Source: a virus
DNA: 64,000 nt
Direction: 5' to 3' (one strand)
Virus record (IMG/VR): IMGVR_UViG_3300014911_000001
Location: 64,001-128,000 of that record
Part shown: piece after piece, positions 126 to 64,000 of the stretch
Position numbering within the stretch: position 1 is the stretch's first letter
How the letters are laid out: each line of letters begins with the position of its first letter
Program-made: the position numbers and the translations under genes
The notes under the pieces: generated by a model
The model's database searches: none
Seen by the model: only the letters and a program-made list of their open reading frames with translations
What the model was told of the DNA's origin: nothing

Positions 126-326
126 TCACCTCCTTTTTGTTTGGTTTTTTACATCACCAAATTGACCTTTCAGATATAGTGGCAATGTTATCAGTCCAGC
201 AATGAAGCCGCCGCATTGAGCAGCCGTCACATTACCAGTTAGTGCTGCAATAAGGAACGATACAGGGAACGCGGCCATGAAGCCGACGGCTGCTCCCTTT
301 AATGATGCCTTTAATGTGTTTCTCAT
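126..326 (-). CDS. small membrane protein
   Basis: Two hydrophobic segments; ATG at 326 follows the upstream stop. Confidence 0.6.
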   Translation of the reverse strand: MRNTLKASLKGAAVGFMAAFPVSFLIAALTGNVTAAQCGGFIAGLITLPLYLKGQFGDVKNQTKRR

Positions 327-333
327 CTCTTTC

Positions 334-603
334 CTATTCCTCCTTTCCACTGTTGATGAAAGAGCGCACCTTCTCAACCAGCTTCTCCTTCACCTCCTCG
401 GCGCGCTCTGTAAGTTCCTTCCCCATCTTCCTCAGTTTCAGAAATCTGAAGAATCCAATTATTCCAACTGCTGCGAGGATGCTTCCCACTATTCCTCCTA
501 ATAACAAGGCGAGAATCGCGGTTACCCAGCATGCGAAATCGGGTTCGTCGCTGATTATGTATGGTGCGAAGTATGATGCGGCTGCTAGTATTATTCTGCT
601 CAT
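334..603 (-). CDS. small membrane protein
   Basis: GGAGG SD; hydrophobic N half, charged coiled C-terminus. Confidence 0.65.
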   Translation of the reverse strand: MSRIILAAASYFAPYIISDEPDFACWVTAILALLLGGIVGSILAAVGIIGFFRFLKLRKMGKELTERAEEVKEKLVEKVRSFINSGKEE

Positions 604-707
604 TCTTTACCTCCCTCTGTCGAAAACATTTTTGATAATATAACTCCTAATATAAACCCTATTATAAATGGTATGTAGTCAATTACTCCAAACATTGGTT
701 CAAACAT
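600..707 (-). CDS. 35-aa single-TM peptide (MFEPMFGVIDYIPFIIGFILGVILSK...)
   Basis: Not in the ORF track; AAGGAGG SD and ATGA overlap with the next gene. Confidence 0.55.
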   Translation of the reverse strand: MFEPMFGVIDYIPFIIGFILGVILSKMFSTEGGKE

Positions 708-850
708 TTTTTGACCTCCTTTCTCCATTTTCTTTCCTTCAGCATAAGTTTTACTGACCTTACCATGATGTATATGCCAGCAACAATTGCAGTAAGGCCA
801 GCAACTACCAGTGATGACCTTATGAATATTTCACTTAATGTTATAAACAT
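683..850 (-). CDS. small membrane protein
   Basis: Start re-called to MFITLSE after GGAGGAG SD; one TM helix and a basic tail. Confidence 0.6.
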   Translation of the reverse strand: MFITLSEIFIRSSLVVAGLTAIVAGIYIMVRSVKLMLKERKWRKEVKKCLNQCLE

Positions 851-975
851 TTCTCCTCCTTTGTTGACCCTCCTCCCCTCCTTGATATGGCGGGGCTTAT
901 GGTGGGACAAGGGGAGAGGCCTAATTGAGGGAAACACTTGGATCAAGGTGGGAGAGGGGAGGAGAGCCCTTTGAT

Positions 976-1383
976 TTAATCTTCGTATTGTGTGTACCAC
1001 TTGTTCTCTCTGGCGTTATACCATATGTAAATCTGTAAATCGCCGAAGTCTATATGTATGTATGGCATCCCGTCCGACCAGTGCCACCTGAAGGTCATCC
1101 AACCGATTGGTTCTGTTAGGATCTCCAATTTCGGTTCGTCCTTCTTTGGATTGAATGCCCATGCATATAGATCGAGTCTCTTCTTGTATGCGTACGGTGC
1201 ATCCGGGTGTCTGCATACTATGTAGACTGGAACAAGCTCCGCCTCGGGGCCTATGGGAGAGGATACAATGTTGCCATCTTCATCTATCGCGACGGGGAAT
1301 TCTACATGCGCCTTTGCTGTGTATCCCACAGGATACACAATGTGCGCATGATATTTGTTATTCATTCTAACTGATTTCCACAT
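976..1383 (-). CDS. hypothetical protein
   Basis: AAGGAGG SD, 135-aa ORF in the operon. Confidence 0.7.
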   Translation of the reverse strand: MWKSVRMNNKYHAHIVYPVGYTAKAHVEFPVAIDEDGNIVSSPIGPEAELVPVYIVCRHPDAPYAYKKRLDLYAWAFNPKKDEPKLEILTEPIGWMTFRWHWSDGMPYIHIDFGDLQIYIWYNARENKWYTQYED

Positions 1384-1401
1384 AATAACCTCCTTGTTAA
1401 T

Positions 1402-1749
1402 TTAGAATTTTATTATGATTACTTTCTTGCCTTTCTCTCTCATAACTCGTATCATATGCCGCGTCCCGGGGCTCTTTCCGTCCCAGAACGCGACAAGCAT
1501 GTCGGCTATCCGTGCCATTTTTTCATTCCTGCGATATCCTGCAGATTTCCCAAAGCGCTCCCAGTCCGCCGGATACACCTCCAACCTGAAGCCGCGCTCC
1601 CTCGCATACTTCTCGCCTAACCTGTCGGCTCCGCGAGCACCTCCTGATACTATGGTTATACCCGGGATGTTTCCAAGGATCTTGTCCAGCTCCTTCTTAA
1701 GCAGATTGTAATCGCTAAATGTCCTAGAGCCTGCGATTATTACCTTCAA
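1402..1749 (-). CDS. YspA/SLOG-family (DUF2493-like) protein
   Basis: VIIAGSRTF, VSGGARGAD, AGYRRN, FWDGKSPGT motifs. Confidence 0.9.
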   Translation of the reverse strand: MKVIIAGSRTFSDYNLLKKELDKILGNIPGITIVSGGARGADRLGEKYARERGFRLEVYPADWERFGKSAGYRRNEKMARIADMLVAFWDGKSPGTRHMIRVMREKGKKVIIIKF

Positions 1750-1762
1750 AATCCTGACCTCC

Positions 1763-2005
1763 TTATCTATTATAGTAGATTTTTATCTTTGCACTCCGTC
1801 CATATCTCCACCTCAATCTCCGCTTTAGCTCGTTTATATCCGCAGCAAAAATCTCATGGAGGCCGTCAGTTCTGACAAACCTCCATGATTTTATATTCCC
1901 CACGTAGGTTGGCTTTCCATTAGGGGCATATGTATGTAGTTTCTCCTTTGTCCTTACTGTTATAACATCAATGTCCTTCAGTAACGGGTAAAATTTCAAC
2001 GACAT
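1763..2005 (-). CDS. hypothetical protein
   Basis: AAGGAGGTG SD. Confidence 0.65.
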   Translation of the reverse strand: MSLKFYPLLKDIDVITVRTKEKLHTYAPNGKPTYVGNIKSWRFVRTDGLHEIFAADINELKRRLRWRYGRSAKIKIYYNR

Positions 2006-2030
2006 AAAACACCTCCTTTTTTAATGTGAA

Positions 2031-2081
2031 GCCCGCCATTAAATCGAAGCGCGCAACCCGGCGGGCTTAGGTCGCGCGCTT
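2031..2081 (-). ncRNA. H-type pseudoknot upstream of RBS
   Basis: S1 AAGCGCGCGACC/GGUUGCGCGCUU, loop UAAGCCCGCCG, S2 GCCCGCC/GGCGGGC. Confidence 0.75.
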
Positions 2082-2088
2082 ACTTTTT

Positions 2089-2760
2089 TTATTCCACTTT
2101 ATTGACCCAGTCGGCTTTGGCATACGGCTTGCCGTTTATATACCACCTCTTCTCGGACGTTATGAGCACGGTTTCATAGCGCTCAAGTAGGTAATCGTTA
2201 CGCTCCCTTACCACGACAGCTTTAGGCTCAGGGATGATGGCATCGGTACCATGTGGAGGTGTGGGAGGGAAAATTGAAACGAGCTGACGTGGAAGGATGA
2301 CAAGAGAAAGGTGTTTGCCTTTCTGTTTGATGCGACTCCTGATGGTCTTCTCGAGACCCTTCTCGACGATTACGTAGCCATACGAATCCGCAGCCTCCTG
2401 GGCGAGTGTGTTCGCCATTTTATTCCCTGTTCTGGCTGTGTGTTTTACAATAACCTCCTTATGCTGGTTATCAGCGTAGTACCTAGCCAGCTCATATAAT
2501 TCCATAAGCTCAGGCTTCTTAATATCATATTCTTGGTTAAACTGCTTCACCACTAACTGTGAGTCGCTGTGTATTGTGGTATCACCCTGGATGTACTGGC
2601 TAATGTATGTCGCAAGAACTAGTGCTGCCCATTCAGCCTCGTTGTTTGTTGCCTCCCCAATGGGTATTGATAGTGATATACCAACCTCCGGAATATATAT
2701 CCCAATCCCAGCGGGACCGGGATTGCCTTTTGATGAGCCATCAATGTAAATGTTAGTCAT
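2089..2760 (-). CDS. rnhA: ribonuclease HI-like protein with C-terminal extension
   Basis: [40 protein letters not shown] motifs. Confidence 0.9.
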
Positions 2761-2774
2761 AATACCTCCTTTAT

Positions 2775-3197
2775 TTATGGTTTAACTTTTCGTAAGCCGA
2801 GGCAACCTATCGGTCGTATGCTTCCACTGCTGGTCTTTTCATATACAGGATGAGCAATCGTGTATAACTTGTCTACGTTAGGTAGGTTGAGAGCAACTGC
2901 TGCAGAAGCATATTGATTACTAACAATTATTATATCAGCATCATCAGGGATGGGATCAATATCCTGTATCCTCTGTGTTATAACTGGGATCATAACCTCA
3001 CCGTTCACTGGACATTCGTAAAGGATGCTCGGAAGGAATTCGGTTTCATGGTGGACATTCAGAAGGATTCCGGAGGGTGGAATTATGGTAACTAGCTTGG
3101 TTTTTTCAGGCTCTATGAAGTATTTCCTGTGCTCACTTATGTAAACGGCGTCCTCAAAAATACATATCTCGTGAGGAGTGCAGTTTAAGATTTTCAT
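2775..3197 (-). CDS. conserved phage hypothetical protein (NxTPH type)
   Basis: ILNCTPHEI start and IIVS..IGCLGL end; SD present. Confidence 0.7.
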
Positions 3198-3219
3198 TAC
3201 ATACCTCCTTTTATTAGGC

Positions 3220-3279
3220 GGGCCTCATTACACCACCATGCAGAGCAGCAGGGCGAGGCCCTTAACCCTGAAGCTCTGC
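3220..3279 (-). ncRNA. H-type pseudoknot upstream of RBS
   Basis: S1 GCAGAGC..CAGGGU/GCCCUG..GCUCUGC, loop UAAGGGCCUC, S2 GGGCCUC/GAGGCCC. Confidence 0.7.
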
Positions 3280-3294
3280 GAAGAAAGAGAGCTA

Positions 3295-3627
3295 TTAGGA
3301 CAAGCGTTCTGCTTCCTGTCTAATCCGAACGGCATCCCTTACTACCTCTAACAGCGAAGGCGGTATAACCCTATTGTTCGAGGTTTTCCCAGTGCGCAAA
3401 TCAACTGCGACAGCACAATCATGCTCGTAAAAGTATACTATATCCCCATCCGGGAAGAATGTTCCATTAGCAGTAGCAACATTATAAATCAGATCGTTGG
3501 TGTATTCGCCGGGATCGCGATATGGTGTATAATGATCCTGAGCGTCCGGTGTTTCACAACCGGTAGTGCTTCTCACACATACATCACACCTGCCACTTCT
3601 ACACAGACGGCACTTATCAAATAACAT
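3295..3627 (-). CDS. hypothetical protein with N-terminal Cys cluster
   Basis: CxxC-x4-CxxC; SD present. Confidence 0.65.
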   Translation of the reverse strand: MLFDKCRLCRSGRCDVCVRSTTGCETPDAQDHYTPYRDPGEYTNDLIYNVATANGTFFPDGDIVYFYEHDCAVAVDLRTGKTSNNRVIPPSLLEVVRDAVRIRQEAERLS

Positions 3628-3654
3628 GATAACCTCCTTATTTTAATGTTTTAT

Positions 3655-3706
3655 GCCCGCCATTAACCAAGCCAGCAAGGACCGGCGGGCTTAGCCCTCA
3701 CTGACT
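3655..3706 (-). ncRNA. H-type pseudoknot upstream of RBS
   Basis: S1 AGUCAGUGAGGGC/GUCCUUGCUGGCU with G-U pairs that fix the strand, loop UAAGCCCGCCG, S2 GCCCGCC/GGCGGGC. Confidence 0.75.
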
Positions 3707-3726
3707 ATTAATTTCCAACTAATTGA

Positions 3727-4095
3727 CTACACAAGTGACGGGCCGAGGGCATCCTCTATTTTGGGACGCCCATACTCAACCTTCCACCCATTTTTAGGCG
3801 GAAGGTTGCGGACCCACCAGTCATACCACTGGCGGTCCATCACCTTTATAAGTTTGGATCGCTTGAAAAACACAGCGATCCACTTCCTTCTTCCCCCAGA
3901 ACGAGGGGAGAAAAACCATATAATCTCATTGGGTCGCACCTTGCCTGTTTTAACAAGATGCGACCACTGCGACCCAGTATTCACATTCTGGGCCGCTAAA
4001 ATAAACTCGTAATGGTTGCGCCACCTTTCGATGGCGCTCTCCCCGGATAACAACTTGGGGAGGTTGATTCTCAAGAAGTTAGTTAATGATAACAT
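3727..4095 (-). CDS. hypothetical basic, Trp-rich protein
   Basis: Start re-called to MLSLTN after GAGGAGGTG SD. Confidence 0.7.
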   Translation of the reverse strand: MLSLTNFLRINLPKLLSGESAIERWRNHYEFILAAQNVNTGSQWSHLVKTGKVRPNEIIWFFSPRSGGRRKWIAVFFKRSKLIKVMDRQWYDWWVRNLPPKNGWKVEYGRPKIEDALGPSLV

Positions 4096-4119
4096 AATAC
4101 ACCTCCTCTTTTGGAGGTT

Positions 4120-4177
4120 GCCTGCCACTTTTACCCACAGATAAGGCGAGGCCGGCAGGCTTAACCCCGCCTTATCT
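4120..4177 (-). ncRNA. H-type pseudoknot upstream of RBS
   Basis: S1 AGAUAAGGCGGGGU/GCCUCGCCUUAUCU, loop UAAGCCUGCCG, S2 GCCUGCC/GGCAGGC. Confidence 0.75.
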
Positions 4178-4285
4178 TACTACTCCAGCTCATTGACTCC
4201 ATCACGAGCCAACAAGCCGGCCAAACCCTCCGTCACCCTCGCGGCACCGCTCCTCGCAGGCCGCACACAGGGGAGGAGGGCTTGG

Positions 4286-4353
4286 GGAGGCCTCTTAGAC
4301 CCTCTGTCGAGGGAGCTCCAGCGCCACGCCAAGGCGGGCCTCCAGTGCTGGAG
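4286..4353 (-). ncRNA. HDV-like ribozyme fold, copy D
   Basis: P1 CUCCAGC/GCUGGAG, P2 GGAGGCC/GGCCUCC, P3 GCC/GGC, L3 UUGGCGU, P4 CCCUC/GAGGG, J4/2 UCUAAG. Confidence 0.8.
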
Positions 4354-4403
4354 TAGCCCCCGGCACGGGGGCTTCATTCTTTTTTCTCTCCACCTCCTTT
4401 CTA

Positions 4404-4440
4404 GCGGGATGAGCTAGCCCGGCCACCTAGCCCATCCCGC
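4404..4440 (-). ncRNA. 14-bp hairpin 3' of the RNAP gene; loop complementary to a 5'-UTR bulge
   Basis: GCGGGAUGGGCUAG/CUAGCUCAUCCCGC with loop GUGGCCGGG. Confidence 0.7.
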
Positions 4441-4457
4441 GGTTTAAGGTTTAACCT

Positions 4458-6857
4458 TTAATCGAGCTTCCAGAAGTTGAGCCAAAATTCGCGATCGGCA
4501 TTAGCAAGAGGATGAAGACCAGCAGGAGTTGTAATCCTAAGAAGCCGCGCGATTTCCCAGTTTCGCTTCCGACCAGTATGAAGTTCCACAAGAAATCTCA
4601 CATGAGATTCAAGTTCAGATTCGGTACCAGCAACAATTGCAAGGAAGTCGTTCTCAGCAACGGTAAGAGATTTCCAAGTGGTAAGAATTGCCTGAGGTTC
4701 AAACGCAGCAAGAAGTTTACGGAATCGCCGGTTGAGTCTCCGGAAGTTCCTAGTAAGAAGTATACGTAGCTCAGCAATCCTGCTGTTGAGGAAGCGCCTA
4801 CGCCGATCCAGTTCCCGTCTCCTATTTTTGAGGGTAGCCAGAGCATCGGATAGGGTATTAAGCCTAGGTAGCAGCCACTTTTCCATTTTCTGCCTCAGAA
4901 CTTCGTTTCTGATCCCAGATACTAGGAACCTGACTTTAGTTTCAGGTTTCGCATTAGCGAAGAGTCTCCGGCTCCGATTAACTACCGTATCAACCGCCGT
5001 CACTTTCTCCGCAAGAGCATTCACTTCATTTTCTATCTTCCGTATCCGAGAGAGCATCCGTCCAAACATGCGCCTCCTTATGCGATCCCACTTGAGGAAC
5101 AATGCCTTAACTTCTGGATCAATGGTGCCATCAGGAATAAGATCCTTAAGAGACCTAACTTCTGGCTCAGCAAACTTAACTTCAGGAATAAATTCAGCAA
5201 GAGGACCTGTCGGAGTTATGGCTGCTGGATCAGCTTTCGCGGTTCGGTTAGTGATCATTTGAGTAATAGTATCAAGCCTGGCAGTCGTACTCGCGAGTAG
5301 ATGCAGTCCCGCTTCTACCTCATGACGAAGCTCCGGTTCTTTACCATTAGCAAGATTCACCGCAGCTTGGAATAGCGCTCCAGCTTTCGCAATAAGATCC
5401 ACATTAATCTCAGTATCAGAAAGAAGCATCCTAGTGAAGCCAGCATCTGCCCGTGCGATCATCTCCTTCCCTAGCTCAATATTTTCCACTTCAGTACTAG
5501 GATCCATTCTCCACTTCCCGAAAGAGATTTCTTTTATCTTGCTTCGTATGCTATCGAAGAATTCCTTAGCAACAAGAGGCTCCTTGAAGACCTTGGATGC
5601 CGCGGCGAGAGCCACTTTGTCGCCATCGGCATCCCATCCGCTAGGCATATCTGCAGGGTGTACCAGAATCGCATGCGCACGATGGTCAACAATAATAGGA
5701 AGGATAAGAGTATCACCAGGCAAGATGGGCGACTTCTGTATGAGTAGGAGTTCTCCATCTTTCAGACCAAGCATACGTGCAATCACAGGAGGAATAACAG
5801 CAGTGCCGGGATGTGCATTCTGAAATCCCAGATAGAAGCCCGGGCCTAGTCTCAACTTCCGAAGTGCGATCTTTAAGTGGTCCAGAAGCACTCTCCGCAG
5901 GAAGCCTGCCTCCTTTATGAGGCCGAATTTCCGCAGAATATCAGCAGTCAGAGTCAGCACTGCACTAGGTTCATTGATCGGATCAGCGTTTTTAACAAGG
6001 ATATCAGCCGCTACCTCAGGATCAGAAAAACCATTAATAGCTTCAGCAATCTGCTCCTGAATCCGTTCAACAAACTCAGGCGCTGGATTAACATTCCATC
6101 CGAGTTTCCTTGGCAGAAGGAACCAGCGCGGCAGAGCTTGGCTGAGACTGATGCCACCCGCGAATACGGCACCAACCTCATGCAGCATGATGGTTCGCCC
6201 GAGTTCGAGTACGAAGCGCCGCCTCTTGATGAGTTTTGCGGTGTCAGCATCAGCGACGATATCAGTCCCTGTCTCTATCTCAGTAAGAACTTTATCAGCA
6301 AGAACCTCATCTCCCAGATACAACATCAGCCTCTGGAACCCGACTCTGCCGGGAAGAACTGGTACCGCTATCCCTTTCAGTCCAATAGCTGTAATCTTAA
6401 AACCACGTTTAATAAGAGCACGAGTTACCGCAGGGATATCAGCTTCTGTAGGAGCATGAGCACGCGCAACCAGCTCTGTAAACCTCTCGGACACGAAGAA
6501 AATTCCGTCTACACCCATTTTAGCATCGAGCTTGAGGCCGCGAACATCCACATTAGCCACTCGCTCAGGTTTAAAGTGCCAGCCCTTATTTGGGATCTCC
6601 GGAGTTGTCATCATCTGAATTCGCTTACCAGGAAGAGTTCTCAGATCAAATCCGTGATCGCCGAGGATATCTGCAATCACCTTATTAACCTTATCAATAG
6701 CAGAAGCAGGAACTACTCTAAAGACCCGACAATCAGGAACCATGGTTGGTTTCATTGGAAGATCAGAGTTCAGATCAGGATCAAATGCGAAGAAGACACT
6801 AGCACCAGCTTCAGCGAATAGAATAGCAAGAGGAGACTTCGGTATTCTTTCCATCAT
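4458..6857 (-). CDS. single-chain double-psi-beta-barrel RNA polymerase (YonO/cRdRP-like), ~799 aa
   Basis: Ordered motifs GVDGIFFVS (DG), GLKG (KG), IQKSP ([RK]xP) and catalytic GWDADGDK (DxDGD); start re-called to 6857 after AAAGGAGGTG. Confidence 0.75.
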   Translation of the reverse strand: MMERIPKSPLAILFAEAGASVFFAFDPDLNSDLPMKPTMVPDCRVFRVVPASAIDKVNKVIADILGDHGFDLRTLPGKRIQMMTTPEIPNKGWHFKPERVANVDVRGLKLDAKMGVDGIFFVSERFTELVARAHAPTEADIPAVTRALIKRGFKITAIGLKGIAVPVLPGRVGFQRLMLYLGDEVLADKVLTEIETGTDIVADADTAKLIKRRRFVLELGRTIMLHEVGAVFAGGISLSQALPRWFLLPRKLGWNVNPAPEFVERIQEQIAEAINGFSDPEVAADILVKNADPINEPSAVLTLTADILRKFGLIKEAGFLRRVLLDHLKIALRKLRLGPGFYLGFQNAHPGTAVIPPVIARMLGLKDGELLLIQKSPILPGDTLILPIIVDHRAHAILVHPADMPSGWDADGDKVALAAASKVFKEPLVAKEFFDSIRSKIKEISFGKWRMDPSTEVENIELGKEMIARADAGFTRMLLSDTEINVDLIAKAGALFQAAVNLANGKEPELRHEVEAGLHLLASTTARLDTITQMITNRTAKADPAAITPTGPLAEFIPEVKFAEPEVRSLKDLIPDGTIDPEVKALFLKWDRIRRRMFGRMLSRIRKIENEVNALAEKVTAVDTVVNRSRRLFANAKPETKVRFLVSGIRNEVLRQKMEKWLLPRLNTLSDALATLKNRRRELDRRRRFLNSRIAELRILLTRNFRRLNRRFRKLLAAFEPQAILTTWKSLTVAENDFLAIVAGTESELESHVRFLVELHTGRKRNWEIARLLRITTPAGLHPLANADREFWLNFWKLD

Positions 6858-6871
6858 ATCACCTCCTTTCC

Positions 6872-6998
6872 GCCGCGGATTTCGTTGCCCTCGGTGCGGC
6901 ACTCCGAGGGTCGCCGGGCTTCGAGCGTCATTGGTGCCAAGGCTGGCCATAGAATGAAGCCCGGAAATTCCATGGCCATGGCCGGGCGCCTCAGCACC
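6872..6998 (-). ncRNA. two tandem pseudoknots in the RNAP 5' leader
   Basis: PK-a: GGUGCUGAGGC/GCCUUGGCACC plus UGGCCAUGGAAU/AUUCUAUGGCCA, loop CCGGGCUUC pairs GAAGCCCGG. PK-b: CCCUCGG/CCGAGGG, loop GCCGC pairs GCGGC just before the SD. Confidence 0.7.
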
Positions 6999-7042
6999 TC
7001 TGCCCTCTTTTTATCCATTCTTTCTTACCTCCTTTATAAATA

Positions 7043-7121
7043 GAGGGACTCTTAGGCCCTTAGGCTATTGACCTAAGGGAGCCCCGGCGCCACGACAAGG
7101 CGGTCCCTCAAAAAGCCGGGG
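7043..7121 (-). ncRNA. HDV-like ribozyme fold, copy C
   Basis: P1 CCCCGGC/GCCGGGG, P2 GAGGGAC/GUCCCUC, P3 GCC/GGC, L3 UUGUCGU, P4 CCCUUAGG/CCUAAGGG, J4/2 CCUAAG; begins directly after the upstream UAA stop. Confidence 0.8.
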
Positions 7122-7589
7122 TTAACTCAATTTGACATCATTATTATCCTTCTCTTTCTTTATCCACTCTATCAATTCATCCACTAGGCGCTCCACATTA
7201 TAATCATCAATAATAAGAAGCGCCCTCCTGACCTTGTAGCCGAGCACCTCATGCGCTTTTAGCACATGCCTCGGCATCCAAGGCCAGGTCTCATTGTATC
7301 CCCCATTATATTTGATTTGGAGAAGGATTACCTCCTTCTTATGGGGGATACCAATGCTGACGTCGATTTTAAATACGACGTCAGCTTTACTCCCGATAGG
7401 ATAGTCTATTAATTTCCATCCCGCCGGAAGCTTGGAGGATAGTTCTTCAATGAATCTATCCTCCGCTTCGAAGCCAGCTCTATGCGCCTCATGTGCGATA
7501 GAGCTAACCTCGAAATCCGGGCGGATTATTTCATGACATTCCGCCCAGAATTTTCGCGCTATAGTGCGGGCATGCGTTTCCATATCCAT
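7122..7589 (-). CDS. hypothetical protein, possible PD-(D/E)xK nuclease fold
   Basis: G.EAE...D...KID...LLQIK pattern; SD present. Confidence 0.5.
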   Translation of the reverse strand: MDMETHARTIARKFWAECHEIIRPDFEVSSIAHEAHRAGFEAEDRFIEELSSKLPAGWKLIDYPIGSKADVVFKIDVSIGIPHKKEVILLQIKYNGGYNETWPWMPRHVLKAHEVLGYKVRRALLIIDDYNVERLVDELIEWIKKEKDNNDVKLS

Positions 7590-7601
7590 GGTTGCCTCCT
7601 T

Positions 7602-8177
7602 TTACTCGACAAGAACATGATATATTCCATTTATTTTCTTTACTTTCCTTACTCTAAATAAACATTTATCCACAATTACTTCCTCTTCTTCACAATAAGG
7701 TTGCAAATTCAACAATCTCCCCTCTGCTTTAGTCATAAATACAACAGGAACTACATCAGGAAAATTATATCCTTCCCACAAATCCGGGTCATCAAACTCG
7801 TTATCATAACTTCTCTTTTTTCAAATTGCGAAGCGCTTTGCAACTGCATAACGCCTCGTCCAACTCATATTGATAGATATTTTCCTCCCTATCTGAGGGA
7901 TAGCATATACAACATCCCCTCTGAATAATAGTGATCTTACCTTAGGACACCCTAATAACGATATTTTTAAGGCGAGCTTAGAAATATAGATACCTCTCCC
8001 CTTCCACATTCTCAGCAAAGCGATCCTATTGTCTTTTGAAAATATCCCGCACAAAATTCTCAGCTTTTTCAATAACAGCTTGTATTTCATTTGGAGATGG
8101 TTCAGCTTTATTTCCCAACTCCTGTAAAAAACATTCCTTTTAGGATCTTTAATGAATAACGAAATGACCCACCACAT
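7602..8177 (-). pseudogene. ~191-codon ORF interrupted by one in-frame TGA at 7821-7823
   Basis: The frame continues KKRSYDNEFDDPDLWEG...HVLVE to TAA at 7602, next to the following SD. Confidence 0.6.
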
Positions 8178-8193
8178 TGTTACACCTCCTTTT

Positions 8194-8299
8194 GCCCGTA
8201 TTAGTTTACCAAGGGCACCATCTGACCTGCGGGCATTGATCAGACGGTGCCTATGTTACAAAACGGGCACCGTATAGTCATGGTAACAATACGGTGCCC
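8194..8299 (-). ncRNA. two tandem H-type pseudoknots upstream of RBS
   Basis: GGGCACCGUAU/AUACGGUGCCC with loop UGUUAC pairing GUAACA; GGCACCGUCUGA/UCAGAUGGUGCC with loop GCCCG pairing CGGGC. Confidence 0.7.
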
Positions 8300-8318
8300 T
8301 CACAACATCCCCTTTTAT

Positions 8319-8396
8319 TAGGGTGCTCTTAGACCCTTAGGGATTGGACCTAAGGGAGCCCCTCCACCACGTCAAGGTGGCACCCTATCGGAGGGG
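8319..8396 (-). ncRNA. HDV-like ribozyme fold, copy B
   Basis: P1 CCCCUCC/GGAGGGG, P2 UAGGGUGC/GCACCCUA, P3 ACC/GGU, L3 UUGACGU, P4 CCCUUAGG/CCUAAGGG, J4/2 UCUAAG. Confidence 0.8.
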
Positions 8397-8449
8397 TAGC
8401 AAGGCCATCATGTGAGGCCTTGCTTTGGCTTGGGCGGCACCTCATCATC

Positions 8450-8746: not shown

Positions 8747-8760
8747 GATAAACCTCCTTT

Positions 8761-8820
8761 CGCCGCACCTCAGTTCAGCCCCCGACACGCATGCGGTGCG
8801 GCATTTACATACGTGTCGGG
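8761..8820 (-). ncRNA. H-type pseudoknot abutting the SD
   Basis: S1 CCCGACACGUAUG/CAUGCGUGUCGGG, loop UAAAUGCCGCACCG, S2 GCCGCACC/GGUGCGGC. Confidence 0.8.
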
Positions 8821-8836
8821 ATGCCGCCCAAGCCAT

Positions 8837-55227: not shown

Positions 55228-55252
55228 GATTGGTGGAAGGAATATCAAGTAG

Positions 55253-55289: not shown

Positions 55290-55305
55290 GGTATGTTGTC
55301 TTGAG

Positions 55306-55539: not shown

Positions 55540-55554
55540 TATTAGGAGGTTATT

Positions 55555-56412: not shown

Positions 56413-57587
56413 TGAGATTAGAGGATGCTGAAAGCAAGCAGTATGTATTTAGTTTTAGTGGTGCTGATTATATACCATTTGCTTTTGTGGGGGGGCGGCT
56501 TCGTGCGCTCCCCCTTGTTATGACGATAACGGCTTCTTTTGTTGCTGATCAGGCGCCAGCCTTAACCCTTGGTAGTAAGGTACCACTGACAATAAGGCCC
56601 GGTCATGTTACTGTCGCGGGCTCCATTATAGGGGCTGTTAGTGATGTACATCCTCTCTTTCCATTGACATCATTGTTTGTTAGGGATGTGCGCTTCGGTA
56701 CTGATGTTGCGCTAAGGACATATGAATTACCCCTTTTTGATATTATTATTGTTGGCATTAATGAGGTAGGTAGGACGACCGTTGCGAAGGTTTATGGTGC
56801 ACGCATCCAGCAGGGAGGATATACGTATTCAATCCAGGATCTTTACACAGAAACAACATTTCAGTATAGGGCGCTGGATATGGATGAACCTCAGGTAGCA
56901 CCTGTTATGGAAGGTGAGATGATGCATTATATTAATCCAGCCATATTTTTTGACCGGCTTAATAGGATTCCTATCTTAGCGAAGAATAAAGCGGAGGTTG
57001 GTGCTGTATTGGGTGTTATATTATCATTGCGTGCGAAACTTATTGACATCTATGACAAGATTGCTAATGCAAAGAGTATAGAAGAGCGTGAGCATTGGTT
57101 GCAGGAAGCTGAAAATGTGCAGGAAGAAATCCGCAGGTATGAGGATGCGCTTAATACGACATTGAGGTTATATTCGAGGACTGTTATATCAGGTAATCAA
57201 TTTGCGGATGCTGTATTTGGGGATTTGGTTTGGCCGCGGGATTTGAAGTATGTTGAAGTGGAGAAATCTTATGTATATCCGCAGCGTTATTATGCATCTG
57301 TTGGGGATACACAGAAGATTGGTACCTATCAATGGCGTTCTGAACATGAGACTGATATGTGGAATATATATACCTATTTCCAACAGATTTATATAATGTT
57401 ACGAGATTCGTATCGAAAAGGAGATGTACCTATGCATGATTTATATAGGAGGTGCTTAGATTTCCGTGCGAAGTTAATAAGTGCTATGTCAACCTTTAAG
57501 GAGGATAAATATTTACATCCATATTATGGTGAAGCTTTATTGAAGCGTTATGATGAGTTAATTAAGCAGATAAGAGAGAGACTATGA
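56409..57587 (+). CDS. tail tube-like paralog
   Basis: SFSGADY, VAGSI, LPLFDIII..NE.G. Confidence 0.7.
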   Translation: MMRLEDAESKQYVFSFSGADYIPFAFVGGRLRALPLVMTITASFVADQAPALTLGSKVPLTIRPGHVTVAGSIIGAVSDVHPLFPLTSLFVRDVRFGTDVALRTYELPLFDIIIVGINEVGRTTVAKVYGARIQQGGYTYSIQDLYTETTFQYRALDMDEPQVAPVMEGEMMHYINPAIFFDRLNRIPILAKNKAEVGAVLGVILSLRAKLIDIYDKIANAKSIEEREHWLQEAENVQEEIRRYEDALNTTLRLYSRTVISGNQFADAVFGDLVWPRDLKYVEVEKSYVYPQRYYASVGDTQKIGTYQWRSEHETDMWNIYTYFQQIYIMLRDSYRKGDVPMHDLYRRCLDFRAKLISAMSTFKEDKYLHPYYGEALLKRYDELIKQIRERL

Positions 57588-59590
57588 TAGTCCGCCGTTT
57601 TGTAAATACTAACATATATAAGAATCTACAGGAGAAGCAGGGCATAACGGACAATGATGGTACTGTTTCCTATAAGCCGGCTGAGGAAACGACTTTTGAT
57701 ATACCTTATTTAGAGGATTTTTATACCCCTGCGCTTATTACGCTTTACTTTGATGGCATAAGGATAGCTGAGGCTGTTTTTGTGGAATATGTTTATAATG
57801 ATCAGAAGATACCTGTTTATGGTTATGGGGATCGTTATGTTCGTGCATTTGAGGAGGGGCATCATTTAATAAGCGGGCGCATGGGGTTTTTATTTAAGGA
57901 GACGGCTTATTTATCGAGTGTTATTGATTTGGTATCAGGAAGCCGGCTTATTACCACACCCGGAGGTGAAAGTGCTGTATATGCATTGCTGCAGAGAGTA
58001 CTGAGCGATCCTGAGGTTAATGAAAAAGTTGAATATATGAGGCAGATTTTGACATCGGTATTTGGGTTGGAGCCCTTCAAGGTTGGGCAGCTTAATGCTA
58101 ATCAGATGATTAATTTATTAAAGATTTATAAGTCTGTTATTTATATGACTGTGAATCCCCGCTATGGCGCCACAGGTCCTTTGGTGACAGAGGCAATGAA
58201 CAGTAGCGAAGCGCTTAGTTCTCCCTCATCGCCACTGGTATGGAAGATCGGCTCGCCTCATGTTATATCGGCAATGTTAGATATGGAGGATGTCTTTGGT
58301 GAGGTGGCTATTGAAGGATTGTGGGAATCAGTGGAAGATGCATTATGGAGTAAGGAGGTGCCGGGCTTAGACATTGCACCCATCGTAGAGCATGATTTAG
58401 GTTATACAGGTTATGGGTATGTAATATCTGACAAAACATTTGATGTTTTTATAAGGTATGGTGCTGATGGATCAAGCATTACAGACCATACAGTTGAGGT
58501 TATCAATGATGTCCATCTTGTATCAAGTGGCAAGAGCATCAATGTTGGCTCGCCTGATCTTGTTGTTGAGGTTTTGGAGTTCATAGCGCGCACTAACAAT
58601 CGGCGGCTTAATATCTACCAGCATAAACAGGTATCGGAGACGGATGAGCTTATTCCACCGCAAATGGATAGTGGTATGAGCGAGGGGAAGAAGTATTTTA
58701 GTTATAAGAAAGAAGAAATGGAGAATGCGAGGGTCGGGGATCAGGAAAAGGAGAAATATAGAAAGCTTTCAGAAGAGGAATTGAAAGAAATGCGGGCTAC
58801 CTTGTGCGGTCGTTGTATTGATGAAAGATGTAGTATCAAGGTGGGTAGTTTTGGGTTTAACACGTTGAAAGATAGCTTGTTTGAACATACAGGTATAACA
58901 TTAGATATTAGCTATCGAGGTGAGACTCATTTTGGTCCTTTGGTCATATATGAAAAACCGACATTTACTTTGAGTGTGGAGAAGACAGTTGATAATTTGT
59001 TGGCTAATATTGCAAAATTATCGCAGGCTGCTACAAGGGGATCATTGGGTGGATTTGTAGTAGAGAAAGGTTTGTTGGAAGTTGTGTGGGGGCAGCATCC
59101 TAAACTTGAGCAGCAGGGCCCTCATAAAGTAAGGACAGTTGGTTGTCCTTTTGCGTTTGCGGAGGCGGTTGTAGAAAATTTGAAGCCATCATTTTGTTTA
59201 CGCTACTTGAATGCTCTTTTAAGGTATAGTGCCCCACCGAGTGCTATTATTGATGATTTGCGTGCTATTTTAGATTATGTTACTTCGCATTCAGGTATCG
59301 CAAGTTTGAAGTTTCCTATAGCTATTGCTATGGCTGGTCATGGTGATGAGTTTAATAAAAACATTTCGCAATATATGAAAGGGGTTCATGTGCCACAATT
59401 TGATGTATATGATGGATTAAAGATAAGTGTAAAAAAAGCACTACTACAAATAAATGAAGGGGAAAATACTCCTTATAAATTGGCTGTTTTGCCGTTGTAC
59501 ATAATTATGATTGATTTAGCTGACCGTGAATCGGTATTGAATTTTAAAAATAAGCTTGACACATGGACATTCCATCATTATTATTACTGA
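57584..59590 (+). CDS. tube-fold baseplate hub/initiator protein
   Basis: K.PVYGYG...G..LISG, FDVFI.YG, EFIAR. Confidence 0.6.
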   Translation: MIVRRFVNTNIYKNLQEKQGITDNDGTVSYKPAEETTFDIPYLEDFYTPALITLYFDGIRIAEAVFVEYVYNDQKIPVYGYGDRYVRAFEEGHHLISGRMGFLFKETAYLSSVIDLVSGSRLITTPGGESAVYALLQRVLSDPEVNEKVEYMRQILTSVFGLEPFKVGQLNANQMINLLKIYKSVIYMTVNPRYGATGPLVTEAMNSSEALSSPSSPLVWKIGSPHVISAMLDMEDVFGEVAIEGLWESVEDALWSKEVPGLDIAPIVEHDLGYTGYGYVISDKTFDVFIRYGADGSSITDHTVEVINDVHLVSSGKSINVGSPDLVVEVLEFIARTNNRRLNIYQHKQVSETDELIPPQMDSGMSEGKKYFSYKKEEMENARVGDQEKEKYRKLSEEELKEMRATLCGRCIDERCSIKVGSFGFNTLKDSLFEHTGITLDISYRGETHFGPLVIYEKPTFTLSVEKTVDNLLANIAKLSQAATRGSLGGFVVEKGLLEVVWGQHPKLEQQGPHKVRTVGCPFAFAEAVVENLKPSFCLRYLNALLRYSAPPSAIIDDLRAILDYVTSHSGIASLKFPIAIAMAGHGDEFNKNISQYMKGVHVPQFDVYDGLKISVKKALLQINEGENTPYKLAVLPLYIIMIDLADRESVLNFKNKLDTWTFHHYYY

Positions 59591-59617
59591 TGTTAAATCT
59601 TAACAAAGGGGTGGTAT

Positions 59618-60295
59618 ATGGATCCCAAAGAGTATAAACAGCAGCATGGTGTTGATATTTTTGCGGTTGGTTGTAATGTTCTGAAAAATACTTATAAGGC
59701 ATATTTTCCTATTATGTCTGTTGCTGATCTTACGACTGATGTTATGTATAATGACCCTGCGCGGGTTCATCTATTAAATGTTGTCCGTAACCTTGTTGAA
59801 AAGATAAGTTTAGGAACGATGACTGATGATGATTTGGTTGCTGTCATGGGTGGTTGCATTCATCTCGAAAAGAATATGCAACCTATTGATCCGATGTCTG
59901 TAGAGAATGCTATAGCTAAGCTCTTAGCTGAACGGTGGATTACTGCGATGGGCTTCTTTGATACACCGCGGGTTTATGTTGCTGAGGTGGATGGGCAAAC
60001 ATGCGATGTTGTTGAAACTGTTTATGCAGGTAAGGTTTACAAAATTTATCTAAAGCCTATATCAGGTGACAATGATCCTCGTATTGAGCATGTGTTGAAG
60101 GTCTTGGGTAGAGAGTATACGATTGATCAGACATATGATGTATTTAGAAGCTCGGTTGTGAAGGTTGAAGCCGCGCCCTTTGGGCAGCTATCGTTTGAGG
60201 ATGTTGAACTTAATGATAAAGTGCTGTTTGCAAGTGCTGTTATGGCGTGGATTGAGAATACAGGTAGCATTGAATATGATTACGAAATTATATAA
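59618..60295 (+). CDS. putative tail assembly chaperone
   Basis: Position; upstream TTGACA-N17-TATTAT at 59556. Confidence 0.4.
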   Translation: MDPKEYKQQHGVDIFAVGCNVLKNTYKAYFPIMSVADLTTDVMYNDPARVHLLNVVRNLVEKISLGTMTDDDLVAVMGGCIHLEKNMQPIDPMSVENAIAKLLAERWITAMGFFDTPRVYVAEVDGQTCDVVETVYAGKVYKIYLKPISGDNDPRIEHVLKVLGREYTIDQTYDVFRSSVVKVEAAPFGQLSFEDVELNDKVLFASAVMAWIENTGSIEYDYEII

Positions 60296-60672
60296 TGAAT
60301 CTTATACGTATTAAGTATGAGGATACCACCTATGAATTTAATTATCCCACCCTATTTGATTACTACTTGTTTATTGATGGTCAAAAAGTTCGGGTATTTG
60401 ATCGCCTCGCATTAAAGGATTATAGTATTCCATCAATTAAGAAGGTGCGCATTATAACCATCCTCTTTCGTCACTTCCCCGCCTTTGCTACAGAGGATGA
60501 GGTATTTTCCAATATACCGGATGCTGGTGGTTTGATTTATTTAATTCGGGCATTTGGATATAAACCTCACGAATTATTGCAGTTAAATCCTTATGAGCTT
60601 GATTTTGCGGTAAGGTTGGCGGAATATATAAACAATCCAAAACTAGAGAATGACAGTAGTCCGCAGGAATAA
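60295..60672 (+). CDS. putative tail assembly chaperone
   Basis: Position; RAFGYKPHELLQL. Confidence 0.45.
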   Translation: MNLIRIKYEDTTYEFNYPTLFDYYLFIDGQKVRVFDRLALKDYSIPSIKKVRIITILFRHFPAFATEDEVFSNIPDAGGLIYLIRAFGYKPHELLQLNPYELDFAVRLAEYINNPKLENDSSPQE

Positions 60673-63600
60673 GCCCTTTCTTTTCCAGAGTGATTTAGCA
60701 CGCATACGCACAGATGAGACATTGCGCAGCCGTTATGGGTGGGGTCGTACACTTTTGCGTTTTGGAGTGGCGATGGCTTCCTTTGCTGTTTTGTCTTATG
60801 GTGCGCGTTCCTTATCGCGTGCATGGCGTGCATTGGCCACATCTGGAGCATTATCACGGAAGTTTGTTGAAGGCGTTAAGGTAGTAAAGAAGTTAGGGCT
60901 TGAGCAGGGTAACTTACTTGATGTAATATTATCAGTATCTAGGCGTGCGCGTCGAGTTGCTTATAAATATGTTAAGTGGTCGCAAGATTATAGGGATGCG
61001 TCGCGGCTTCTGCATTTTGGTAAGGCATTAAGGAAAATATGGAGCGGTGGTAAAGCATCATTAAAGGGTTTTAGGAAGGCGCGTGAGGCTTATCGACGGG
61101 TTGGATTACGAGGTGCATTGTTTGGTGCCTTTTTGCGTGGTGCAGAAAGAGGTGTTGGATTTGCGATTTTATCTTCGGCTGCTGATGCATTAACACATTC
61201 ATTTATAACACCTGCGGATAGAGAGAAGACAAGAAAGTATGGTCCTGTTGCTCGTGTGAAGCGTTTTTTCACTGATGCTGTCCTATTTAGTGGATTACAA
61301 GGACTTTGGGGTGTATCAAAAGTTGCCTTTCCTACCTATATACATAGGTATAGCCCACAAATACAGCGTTTTCTTACCCGCATTGGAGCGCCTACTTATG
61401 TGGCTAAGTTTTATGGATGGAGGCGTCGCTTCTATGATTATCTAATTCGTGCTATAGAATATAAGCAGAAGTTTACTCAGAAATTGCAAGGTGCTAATAT
61501 ATGGCAGCACATAAAGCAGCAGATGAAGGAGCATCCCGGGTTAGGTGCTATTGCAACCTATTTGCGGGAGCAGATAAGGGAAGCTCATCTACATGCTAAG
61601 AAATCGTTTAGGAGGCCGGGTGGATTTCCACCAAGGAGTGGTTATGATACGGTTATAACAATGATGAATTATGCGAAAGAGGTTAATGTTAAGGATCCTA
61701 AGTTTGCAGCGGAGATTGCAGCTCAAGCTGTTGGACGTTATAAAGGTGTGAGTAAGTGGCGGCGGCTTCTTAATATCGAACGTGAAAGGTTGACCAAGAA
61801 GCAGGCTGTTGCTTTCAGGGAGATGCTTGAGAAAATGGGGTTTAGCAAGTCATGGATCGAGACATTAAAGGGGGAGGAACGCAAGTTTTATGAGAATCTG
61901 TATTACCGTGTGATGAGGGGACCATTGTTCCATGGTCCCGGATGGTTTGAAGTAGCCGGGCAAAAGTTTTCACAGTATGAGACGCGTTATTTTGTAAAAG
62001 GAATTCTCCAGAATCTATATGCTGGTCGATGGAGGGGGGTTACACGCATTTTGGCTTCTGCGGCGGGCTTAGACCTCTATGCCAACCGCAGACCTGTATT
62101 TATCTTCCATCCTACCATGGATATTCCGATGAGCGTTCCTATACCGACTGATGAGGGTGTTCGTATGCTACGCTTGGTAACCGAACGTGGTAATGATCGG
62201 GTTCGTCATGGGATTGTATTCTTACAGAATAAATTGTACAGATTATCGCCGACAGAGGAGGGTGGTGAATATTTTGTGGATAGGGTTATAGAGAATGTTA
62301 AATTATATGAGAGCCCGGCTTATAACATATTAAAGAGGGAGTTAACGCAGTATTATATCAAGCAGAGGCGGCGCACGGATGAGATAGGTTTGCGTCCACC
62401 CGGTGAATATGTTAGGGATATAATCAGGAAATTATCGCGGGGTGTTGATAAGGCTAGCTTAGAGGAATTGGTTAATGTATATAAGTCAACCCGTTCGACG
62501 GCCCATATTATCTTTGGTAAATTGTTATCAAAGAAGGAGGTCCGTGAGGTTGCATCGCAGATCTTGGAGCAATTAGGCGCGAGTAGAGCGCAAAGGATCT
62601 TGCAGATGGATGAGGCATCATTAATCAGGGAACTTGAGAAGGTTATAGAAAAGCCTGCACAGGTAACGGAGCGGCTTCGTAACAAGTTTATCTATCTTAT
62701 AAATGCATCACGGAGTAGGATGAGGACTATGAAGGATCTTTTGAATCAGGAGTTTATAGGTTCTGGATATGCAGAAGCACGGGCTAGGCATGTTATTGAG
62801 TCGTTCTTAATTGAGCAGCATTTGACACCAGAAATAAGGGCGAAATTCTTTAGCAGGCTTGCTGAGGAGCAGTTGATCGGGAAGTGGATAAGGAAGCCGG
62901 CTTATACACATTTCTTCAAAGCATTAGCAGAGCTAGCACCTGTTGAGATGGATGCAGAAGCTCTAAGGTCTACTATAAAGGGCGCGCTTAATGATATTGT
63001 AGTCGGTTGGAAAAAATTACCTACAGTTGATCCATTTAGGCCGATATCTGCCTTATTCCAGTATGGTGGATTGGGTATCCACAGGTTATTTGAACCTACC
63101 ATAGAAGGTATACGGGTAATGGGTACTACAGTACCATTTACTGTTGTTAGAGAAGGTATGAGTCCATTTAAACGGTATACGGTAACAAGTTTATTGTTTT
63201 CCCATCACTTACGGCGCATATGGGGATTTATGGATTATGTAAGCAAAGCTCCTCGCAAGTTTCCTATTATCAGGCATTTATTAAGGCGATTAGACCCTAG
63301 ATTGGCTGATACGGCGCATATCTTTCCATTTGAGACTAATACTACTGGTTGGACGGCTTCAGATATGATAAAGAATTTATGGAAGCCGGCGGCTACATTA
63401 TTGGCATTAGGTGTAGGATATAAGGCTGTTGATACATTCTTTGATGAAAGTGGTTTATTTGAAGGGACTGCATTAGGAGAGGGGTTGACACCTGCTATAC
63501 TGGATGCATATGCATTAGGTCGTCTTTCCTTGGCAAGAGTATTGGATATTGCAGGTGTAACTGATGCAGCGCGGTATTTAGAGGGATTAATGCCGGGGTC

Positions 63601-64000
63601 TACGACATGGTTGCCGGGTGCACTATATGGCGTATGGAAGTTTGCACCTGCGGGGCCGGCGGCTTCCGCTATGGGTGCATTAATAATGGGTGCTGTTAAT
63701 AAAATGTTAGCGCCATTTTTGCCTGATTTAACAAAGAGTTATGATCAACTGAAAAGGATATATAGAGGTGAGGAGTATGTGCCTGTAAGGAGAGCAAGGT
63801 ATTGGCCTCTATCTTTAACTCCTTGGGAGGGTTATGATATTGAATATTGGCGGCCTTCTCTATGGTTCATTGTAAGACAGCAGGCAAAATACACTCCTGA
63901 TATAAGTGGTAGCAAGATACAGTCCTTGTTACAGGGTGACTGGTTGTTTGGTTATAATCCATTGCGTATGTTTGATCCATATGCTAAGGAAAGACAGCAT
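60650..64000 (+). CDS. very large basic protein, tape-measure-like, truncated at window end
   Basis: Missing from the ORF track, presumably because it has no stop. ATG 60650 (MTVVRRNKPFLF...) and the window end (...LRMFDPYAKERQH) read open in the same frame; the middle was not translated codon by codon. Confidence 0.7.
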   Translation, partial: MTVVRRNKPFLFQSDLARIRTDETLRSRYGWGRTLLRFGVAMASFAVLSYGARSLSRAWRALATSGALSRKFVEGVKVVKKLGLEQGNLLDVILSVSRRARRVAYKYVKWSQDYRDASRLLHFGKALRKIWSGGKASLKGFRKAREAYRRVGLRGALFGAFLRGAERGVGFAILSSAADALTHSFITPADREKTRKYGPVARVKRFFTDAVLFSGLQGLWGVSKVAFPTYIHRYSPQIQRFLTRIGAPTYVAKFYGWRRRFYDYLIRAIEYKQKFTQKLQGANIWQHIKQQMKEHPGLGAIATYLREQIREAHLHAKKSFRRPGGFPPRSGYDTVITMMNYAKEVNVKDPKFAAEIAAQAVGRYKGVSKWRRLLNIERERLTKKQAVAFREMLEKMGFSKSWIETLKGEERKFYENLYYRVMRGPLFHGPGWFEVAGQKFSQYETRYFVKGILQNLYAGRWRGVTRILASAAGLDLYANRRPVFIFHPTMDIPMSVPIPTDEGVRMLRLVTERGNDRVRHGIVFLQNKLYRLSPTEEGGEYFVDRVIENVKLYESPAYNILKRELTQYYIKQRRRTDEIGLRPPGEYVRDIIRKLSRGVDKASLEELVNVYKSTRSTAHIIFGKLLSKKEVREVASQILEQLGASRAQRILQMDEASLIRELEKVIEKPAQVTERLRNKFIYLINASRSRMRTMKDLLNQEFIGSGYAEARARHVIESFLIEQHLTPEIRAKFFSRLAEEQLIGKWIRKPAYTHFFKALAELAPVEMDAEALRSTIKGALNDIVVGWKKLPTVDPFRPISALFQYGGLGIHRLFEPTIEGIRVMGTTVPFTVVREGMSPFKRYTVTSLLFSHHLRRIWGFMDYVSKAPRKFPIIRHLLRRLDPRLADTAHIFPFETNTTGWTASDMIKNLWKPAATLLALGVGYKAVDTFFDESGLFEGTALGEGLTPAILDAYALGRLSLARVLDIAGVTDAARYLEGLMPGSTTWLPGALYGVWKFAPAGPAASAMGALIMGAVNKMLAPFLPDLTKSYDQLKRIYRGEEYVPVRRARYWPLSLTPWEGYDIEYWRPSLWFIVRQQAKYTPDISGSKIQSLLQGDWLFGYNPLRMFDPYAKERQH

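Follow-up and report, generated by a model that had tools for sequence, protein, structure and literature searches.

What kind of signal is a short, G/C-rich word that recurs throughout a viral genome, inside unrelated genes and in every reading frame? The stretch of DNA analysed here (the window, 64,000 nucleotides) lies in a virus record that represents a 175.8-kb, myophage-like genome of 40% GC, many genes of which have no recognisable family. The original prediction held that GAAGC or TAAGC followed by at least four G/C bases is repeated on both strands, in unrelated genes and in varied frames. Our counts agreed with this: the pattern [GT]AAGC[GC]4 occurs 71 times on the + strand and 74 times on the - strand of the window, a total of 145, and every example position given with the prediction was found among them. 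The five palindromic copies that had been predicted were also located, and are included in the following features (window coordinates):

1..64000, either strand: half-sites (n=145), KAAGCSSSS being SSSSGCTTM of the opposite strand, in unrelated genes and in intergenic DNA
10808..12052, - strand: tnpB (OrfB_IS605 with a Cas12f-like TNB domain), 8 half-sites versus 2.9 expected
14138..15070, + strand: phoH, inside a - strand block; its two non-palindromic sites match the regional (-) orientation, not that of the gene
14973..14986: double site GAAGCCGCGGCTTC, two opposed half-sites with one common G/C run, within phoH
17932..17945: double site GAAGCCGCGGCTTC
18805..20709, + strand: glycosyltransferase-like gene, inside a - strand block; its two non-palindromic sites match the regional (-) orientation
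20519..20532: double site TAAGCCGCGGCTTA, within the glycosyltransferase-like gene
26137..26150: double site GAAGCCGCGGCTTC
28625..28638: double site GAAGCCGCGGCTTC, where the cumulative orientation curve reaches its lowest point (genome position 92,625)
28600..29900: orientation-switch zone, where the prevailing half-sites change from - (left) to + (right), coinciding with a divergence of transcription and a change of sign in the GC skew

The abundance of the motif is not a product of codon or amino-acid usage. Base composition predicts ~3 copies in the window, as had been estimated (two to three per 64 kb), versus the 145 observed. Synonymous-codon shuffling of the window genes raised the expectation to 38.2 +/- 3.5 (maximum 49), still far below the observed number (z = 30). 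Genome-wide, SSSSGCTTM is present 262 times on the coding strand, compared with 19.3 +/- 4.4 in the synonymous shuffle (z = 55). A stricter shuffle, which preserves amino acids, per-gene codon usage and the dinucleotides at codon junctions, gave 106.8 +/- 4.8 (z = 32); mixing is poor in this procedure, which falls short of a full dicodon shuffle, and its result is therefore conservative. Thus the enrichment survived the kind of shuffling on which the original prediction had made its claim depend, and together with the two shuffles the use of frames and the intergenic density rule out a codon or amino-acid artefact. Half-sites in genes use all three frames and are uniform in their position within the gene, and their density is 2.31/kb in coding DNA and 2.57/kb in intergenic DNA. 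The high density claimed for tnpB could be reproduced as a count, but the excess is weak (p = 0.01, uncorrected for the 201 genes).

What functions as the unit is a strand-specific half-site, 5'-S(4-8)GCTT(C/A)-3', and not the palindrome; the genome carries 409 such half-sites. We counted 46 double sites, when ~50 are expected from independent half-sites; since double sites are no commoner than chance overlap of half-sites, the palindrome or hairpin was rejected as the unit. Palindromic interiors of the run numbered 20, versus 10.8 expected. In the half-site the GCTT is invariant, while the 5' run is degenerate G/C: 244 different run sequences were observed, all eight S3 combinations are present and each position is near 50/50 G or C, which indicates that G/C-ness is the sole requirement 5' of the core. 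Runs of 7-13 nt made only of G/C are frequent (544 observed versus ~177 expected). The polarity of the unit is also evident in a sister genome, which contains 334 matches to the forward pattern versus 14 to the reversed one. The base 5' of GCTT is G in the studied phage and C in a sister lineage. The spacing and strand analyses proposed with the original prediction gave a Poisson distribution, with no regular spacing found between half-sites, a strand-specific unit and a switch of orientation at genome position 92.6 kb.

Is the motif selected, and on which molecule? Strains 4.5% apart were compared. The 9-nt sites were identical between strains in 91.3% of cases, versus 75.8% for the phase-matched background, and divergence at third codon positions across SSSGCTT, which is the footprint of conservation, was 0-3% versus 8.5%. 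When G/C runs bearing the motif were compared with motif-less runs of equal length, lacking GCTT, third-position divergence was 3.0% versus 11.6% (Fisher p = 5e-7). Overall, synonymous divergence at the sites is 4- to 8-fold below that of the background or of motif-less G/C runs. An impression that the G/C islands evolve faster came from a small sample mixed with motif-less G/C runs, and the larger analysis gave the opposite result. Sense and antisense sites diverge equally (1.5% and 1.5%). Since antisense sites are conserved as well as sense sites, and since the constraint is synonymous, the signal is selected and acts on DNA rather than on mRNA or protein, as had been predicted; the equal density in intergenic and coding DNA supports this. 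Alleles without a site have the same length as alleles with one, so the sites arise by substitution; these equal lengths and the diversity of the run sequences rule out mobile insertion. We conclude with high confidence that the genome holds ~400 copies of a strand-specific half-site, randomly distributed, whose population is under purifying selection while individual positions turn over.

In support of a population-level constraint, relatives with a portal identity of just 36-38% keep the density of ~2 sites/kb seen in this large uncultured phage and its relatives (90 matches versus 4 control matches), although only 5 of 59 site positions coincide, and in these relatives the flank GCGCTT replaces GGCTT. 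The motif was recovered from independent assemblies of several metagenomes, which excludes an assembly artefact. When IMG/VR was scanned with the 14-nt palindrome, the enriched contigs among the matches listed were known close relatives only. Among cultured phages the portal matches are at 23-28% identity, in Bacillus and Moorella phages; these distant relatives have Bacillota hosts. Moorella phage MTATph1 showed no enrichment of the motif (46 matches versus 32 control matches). In the search for a host, the closest tnpB match, 28% identical, came from a Runella genome, and RNR homologues were uninformative. No Rfam families or tRNAs were found within the 64-kb window, and a search for a phage TopIB gene found none.

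The half-sites are also organised by orientation. Around the switch at genome position 92.6 kb they number 107 versus 30 to the right and 16 versus 46 to the left. The skew is absent over genome 0-64 kb: orientation alternates with gene blocks over 0-27 kb, and is unbiased over 27-55 kb even though every gene there is on the - strand. In the two verified + strand genes embedded in the - strand block, phoH and the glycosyltransferase-like gene, 4/4 non-palindromic sites follow the region and not the gene.

Several known classes of repeated word were considered. HIP1 (GCGATCGC) of cyanobacteria is an exact palindrome tied to orphan methyltransferases (PMC4390886). The phage motif resembles it in its very high iteration in coding sequence, in all frames, and in having palindromic copies. 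Unlike HIP1, however, these copies occur at the rate of chance overlap, and no member of the DNA methyltransferase families PF00145, PF01555 and PF02086 turned up in the complete phage genome; thus, the suggestion of a HIP1-like site was not borne out. For a modification target, another of the original suggestions, an enzyme of the host is conceivable. An uptake-like sequence, also suggested originally, does not fit a virus. DUS and USS belong to the chromosomes of naturally competent bacteria, often as inverted pairs in terminators, and the sites described here are uniform inside genes. Mobile GC clusters and mini-repeats, such as those of yeast mitochondria or the RPE-like in-frame elements, likewise form short G/C-rich islands in AT-rich DNA, genes included, but the phage sites are substitutions, and outside the GCTT flank their islands have no sequence in common.

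Most likely, the motif acts throughout the genome as a signal for the priming of DNA replication, or for a related DNA-handling enzyme. Judging from sequence, we tentatively propose that the sites may be preferred initiation sites of the T7-gp4-like primase-helicase of the phage, giving G/C-rich primers; we consider this possible, without rating it as probable. The enzyme (781 aa; genome 15069-17414, - strand) is a Toprim/DNAG_N and DnaB_C fusion with an N-terminal zinc ribbon (C-x5-H...C-x2-C, residues 29-59), and the phage also encodes an RNase HII, for primer removal. In the proposed scheme, recognition of the invariant GCTT would fall to the zinc ribbon, with one or two cryptic 3' nucleotides, and the neighbouring G/C run would be the template for the primer. 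The order of G and C in the run would be immaterial, since in an otherwise AT-rich genome it is a short but stable RNA-DNA hybrid that would count. An 8-9-mer of this kind would arise by chance only about once in every 10-20 kb of a strand, and selection would therefore have to place the sites in genes. The excess of sense sites may reflect forks that leave from around genome position 92.6 kb and move co-directionally with transcription, and sites on the opposite strand could serve forks from recombination-dependent initiation.

The T7 primase sites GGGTC and TGGTC place a G-rich template 5' of a specific triplet. The gp4-like AtTwinkle uses 5'-(G/C)GGA-3', with two cryptic 3' nucleotides and a preference for G/C in the primer (PMC5737085). 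Like these gp4-family sites (T7 5'-(G/T)GGTC-3'; AtTwinkle 5'-(G/C)GGA-3'), the phage motif has a short invariant core at its 3' side, preceded by a G/C-rich stretch that could act as template; it too would be read from a single strand, in one orientation only, and the phage encodes a zinc-ribbon member of the family. Unlike them, it is longer (8-9 nt), 13- to 24-fold over-represented and under visible purifying selection. In T7 itself the primase sites number 161 and 159 versus ~120 expected, a mild enrichment with no strand bias, so there is no clear precedent for a genome sculpted by its primase. Also against the primase, its distant homologues (25% identity) sit in AT-rich phage contigs that lack the motif, and neither the alternating orientation over 0-27 kb nor the lack of bias over 27-55 kb is predicted by a model of replication from a single origin.

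Chi-like signals have the same polarity logic as primase sites. Here a helicase-nuclease would recognise the half-site in single-stranded DNA as it translocates; it could be AddAB/RecBCD of the host, or a nuclease with which the phage destroys host DNA. Such recognition would attenuate degradation or stimulate recombination, and dense sites would mark the phage DNA as self, protecting replication or packaging ends. The Chi sites known from Firmicutes (AGCGG, GAAGCGG, GCGCGTG) are rich in G/C, although the genomes that carry them are AT-rich. Chi (RecBCD/AddAB) and the skewed octamers KOPS and AIMS are all scattered, over-represented, orientation-dependent words whose density matters and not their exact position, and the phage motif is likewise strand-specific, over-represented and scattered, with a regional bias of orientation that switches at one locus. 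The phage has a RecA-like recombinase, recombination-dependent replication is likely, its distant portal relatives infect Bacillota, and the lineage-specific change of flank could track different hosts. We nevertheless regard a Chi-like site as rather unlikely: known Chi sites are defined words of 5-8 nt, whereas no position of the G/C run is fixed (244 forms), and the strand that corresponds to Chi carries SSSSGCTTM, not a complement resembling GAAGCGG. In KOPS and AIMS the strand skew follows the replichores over the entire replicon. Unlike Chi, KOPS and AIMS, the phage motif lacks skew over genome 0-64 kb and is known from a virus clade alone. A genome-wide binding or loading site for another phage DNA protein (a nucleoid or compaction protein, a transcription or clamp-loading factor, a packaging accessory) would suit a DNA-level signal of uniform density across all gene classes and intergenic DNA, specific to a clade and co-varying in its flank, in a phage with many genes of no recognisable family. 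We judge it unlikely, since dimer-type palindromic sites are not in excess, G/C-ness without defined bases is unusual for recognition of duplex DNA, the orientation bias requires an extra assumption, and no candidate protein was found.

What looks like purifying selection could also come from biased repair. The sites would then be a non-adaptive by-product of sequence-specific repair or gene conversion, similar to very-short-patch repair, that restores or spreads the motif and so imitates both enrichment and conservation. It is true that most changes between site-bearing and site-less alleles are C/T and G/A transitions (37/59), that a few sites differ by clustered multi-base changes with length unchanged, and that site positions turn over. 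Such an origin is quite improbable, however: searches of the complete phage genome found neither Vsr nor any C5 or N6/N4 methyltransferase family, the 13- to 24-fold enrichment is far above what VSP repair is generally known to produce, and neither the strand bias nor the regional bias is predicted. Finally, the excess of sense over antisense sites (262 versus 121) would be expected of an mRNA or translation signal, such as rare-codon pausing, an RNA structure or an RNase site. This explanation is largely refuted and scarcely credible, given the use of three frames, the uniform position within genes, the intergenic density equal to coding, the equal conservation of antisense sites and the fact that sites in embedded opposite-strand genes are oriented with the region and not with the transcript.

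Most of the functional words known to act genome-wide, Chi, KOPS and uptake sequences among them, come from bacterial chromosomes. Our literature search retrieved nothing comparable for a virus, that is, a word so enriched, under purifying selection and in coding sequence of all frames, and a viral word of this kind appears not to have been described before. In practice, fragments of this phage clade can be recognised in metagenomes by the motif, which is a sharp signature. As to its meaning, we find plausible, though short of probable, a selection-maintained replication or self-marking code, in which the phage DNA machinery demands an 8-9-nt G/C-rich word at ~2 sites/kb, in every frame and throughout the clade, that co-evolves with its reader protein. 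This machinery could be the primase, or a Chi-like control of nucleases that separates phage from host DNA without base modification. If the word marks self in the manner of Chi, it would reveal that a phage can protect its DNA without modifying it. Were it the preferred site of the primase, it would be a clear case of the template specificity of an enzyme shaping a whole genome, and the sequence recognised by a gp4-like primase, itself uncharacterised, would be readable directly from the phage DNA.

The word (G/T)AAGC-SSSS had been proposed from the sequence to be over-represented in this virus. In support of this, base composition predicts about 3 copies of [GT]AAGC[GC]4 in the window, as rare as originally estimated, versus 71 found on the plus strand and 74 on the minus strand; synonymous shuffling of the window genes gave an expectation of 38 ± 3.5 copies. 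On the opposite strand the same word reads SSSSGCTTM, and over the whole genome the coding strand carries 262 copies, compared to 19 after synonymous shuffling (z = 55) and 107 after a stricter shuffle in which amino acids, codon usage and the dinucleotides at codon junctions were retained (z = 32). Thus, the enrichment persists under shuffling. Moreover, G/C-only runs of 7–13 nt are in about threefold excess (544 versus roughly 177 expected) and are typically preceded by AA and followed by TT. In a sister genome, the motif had 334 matches, compared to 14 for the reversed pattern.

Alignment of the sites on their core gave a G/C run followed by G-C-T-T and then C (64%) or A (36%). The base 5' of GCTT is G at 75% of sites, and the G/C content upstream of the core is ~90%, falling to background across 6–8 positions. 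Genome-wide, four G/C bases precede 44% of all GCTTC, and GCCTC is a weaker variant of the motif. The run has no preferred sequence, the 544 runs comprising 244 canonical forms. All five palindromes noted originally, in which two opposed half-sites share one G/C run, were found in their places (14973, 17932, 20519, 26137 and 28625). The palindrome did not hold up as a repeated unit: 46 copies were seen, about what the chance meeting of independent half-sites would produce (~50). Since the palindromes match this expectation, the half-site is the unit. Sites occur in all three reading frames and uniformly along genes (KS p = 0.55), their density is alike in intergenic DNA (2.57/kb) and in genes (2.31/kb), and their spacing is Poisson (CV about 1).

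Four related contigs with 92–99% nucleotide identity were then aligned. The near strain G001 spans 147 kb, with 128.7 kb aligned at a divergence of 4.5%, and here 91.3% of the 9-nt sites were identical, compared to 75.8% for 9-mers matched in phase. The same excess of site identity was seen in the three remaining strains. Divergence at third codon positions was 0–3% in SSSGCTT, compared to 8.5% in the background and 10–13% at ordinary G/C third positions. In G/C runs of at least 7 nt, third-position differences amounted to 3.0% with the motif versus 11.6% without it (Fisher p = 5e-7). As antisense and sense sites are equally conserved (1.5% each), the constraint acts on the DNA itself, which all but excludes an mRNA or translational signal. 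The selected DNA-level signal of the original prediction is thus borne out, the sites being less diverged than both the background and the motif-less runs. Note that faster evolution of the islands, seen in a small early comparison that mixed in motif-less runs, was superseded by the larger analysis.

The genome, a single virus record of 175,796 bp and 40.2% GC of which the window covers positions 64,001–128,000, encodes the following features (window coordinates):

36351–38897, large terminase, with TerL profile matches in two separate stretches (residues 63–217 and 558–679)
In the window, portal, tail sheath and major head protein
In the window, class II ribonucleotide reductase (RNR), RecA-like protein, RNase HII and PhoH
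10808–12052, minus strand, TnpB (OrfB_IS605, Cas12f-like TNB, HTH)
4458–6950, minus strand, 830-aa ORF with no Pfam or PHROG match
Outside the window, family B DNA polymerase
Outside the window, primase-helicase of 781 aa (Toprim/DNAG_N plus DnaB_C)

The gap in the middle of the terminase matches would fit an intein. In the sister lineage, the RNR (L157 10001–13258) carries intein and LAGLIDADG domains, which are missing from that of the present phage. The best match of TnpB in the species-genome collection, from a Runella genome, was merely 28% identical. The major head protein (57584–59590) has 70% protein identity to its counterpart in one strain, where the adjoining genes have 88–99%, and the capsid gene looks mosaic or fast-evolving. 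Positions 1–10000 have a higher GC (45–50%) and many G/C runs without the GCTT flank. No Rfam family was found in the window at the gathering threshold.

Genome-wide, 262 sites are sense and 121 antisense, and since sense and antisense counts are alike after shuffling (19.3 and 19.6), the orientation bias is not caused by coding constraints. By region, plus and minus sites are about 1:1 in genome 0–64 kb, 16 versus 46 in 64–96 kb and 107 versus 30 beyond 96 kb, and the cumulative orientation curve turns at genome position 92,625 (window 28,625), where transcription diverges. In 0–27 kb, site orientation alternates with the gene blocks. Between 27 and 55 kb (L009–L010, outside the window), ~56 small genes all lie on the minus strand; there the motif density is normal and the orientation unbiased, which sets the block apart from the remainder of the genome. 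In phoH and a glycosyltransferase-like gene, verified as plus-strand genes within a minus block, the non-palindromic sites (4/4) follow the region and not the gene. These data are not wholly accounted for by transcription alone, nor by replication from a single origin.

An exhaustive portal profile search returned two intermediate relatives only (37–38% identity), both on motif-bearing contigs, and the motif is also present in an IMG/VR contig whose portal is 36% identical. The counts on these three contigs were 11 in 22.5 kb (34% GC), 6 in 3.3 kb, and 90 versus 4 for the control in 44.8 kb. A syntenic ENA contig has the motif as well. It is absent from phages related through the primase alone (25% identity) or the RNR alone (37%), and from a phage with only a 29% partial portal match. 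Nor is it enriched in Moorella phage MTATph1 (OR602862.1), which has the top-identity portal match among cultured phages (27.7% over 35% of the protein) and a genome of nearly equal size (176.6 kb). Since AAGGAGGT is also strongly over-represented, and since among cultured phages a portal similarity was detectable only in those of Bacillus and Moorella, the host is likely to belong to the Bacillota.

The sister lineage G005 has the consensus S-G-C-G-C-T-T-M, the two bases before GCTT being G (88%) and C (83%), and the present phage S-S-G-G-C-T-T-M. GC precedes GCTT in G005, L157 and L143, versus SG in G000 and L142. From this lineage-specific flank, the word looks to be co-evolving with its putative reader. 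The two lineages share 5 of 59 site positions in aligned orthologue columns (1.06 expected); density is kept and positions turn over.

The reader must act on DNA, read one strand, demand an exact GCTT and need G/C-ness alone 5' of the core. The sites of zinc-ribbon primases consist of 3–4 recognised nt with cryptic nucleotides at the 3' end, and the bases lying 5' of the site serve as the template; a primase of the required type is encoded by the phage itself. The best fit among the readings, which we put forward tentatively, is that the sites may be preferred priming sites of this enzyme. It would read GCTT and copy the adjoining 5' G/C run; where the genome is AT-rich, short primers would be most stable if copied from G and C alone. 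The gp4-like AtTwinkle, whose site is (G/C)GGA with two nucleotides cryptic, has a preference for G/C in its primers (PMC5737085). Counting against priming, the own primase sites of T7 are barely enriched.

A Chi-like nuclease or recombination signal would have the polarity logic and the G/C-rich character in common with the motif, but the degenerate G/C run is atypical, and we consider it rather unlikely. A site for another DNA-binding protein is somewhat less probable again. That the sites are a by-product of biased repair is improbable, neither Vsr nor a methyltransferase having been found in the phage genome, and an RNA-level signal, against which the equal conservation of antisense sites speaks, is very improbable indeed. 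The phage also lacks a topoisomerase IB of the poxvirus type.

In the literature on over-represented words in phage genomes and on primase-site enrichment, nothing comparable was found. The motif belongs with the known distributed, skewed, over-represented genomic words, among which it is unusual for its occurrence in a virus clade, its strength and its measurable selection.
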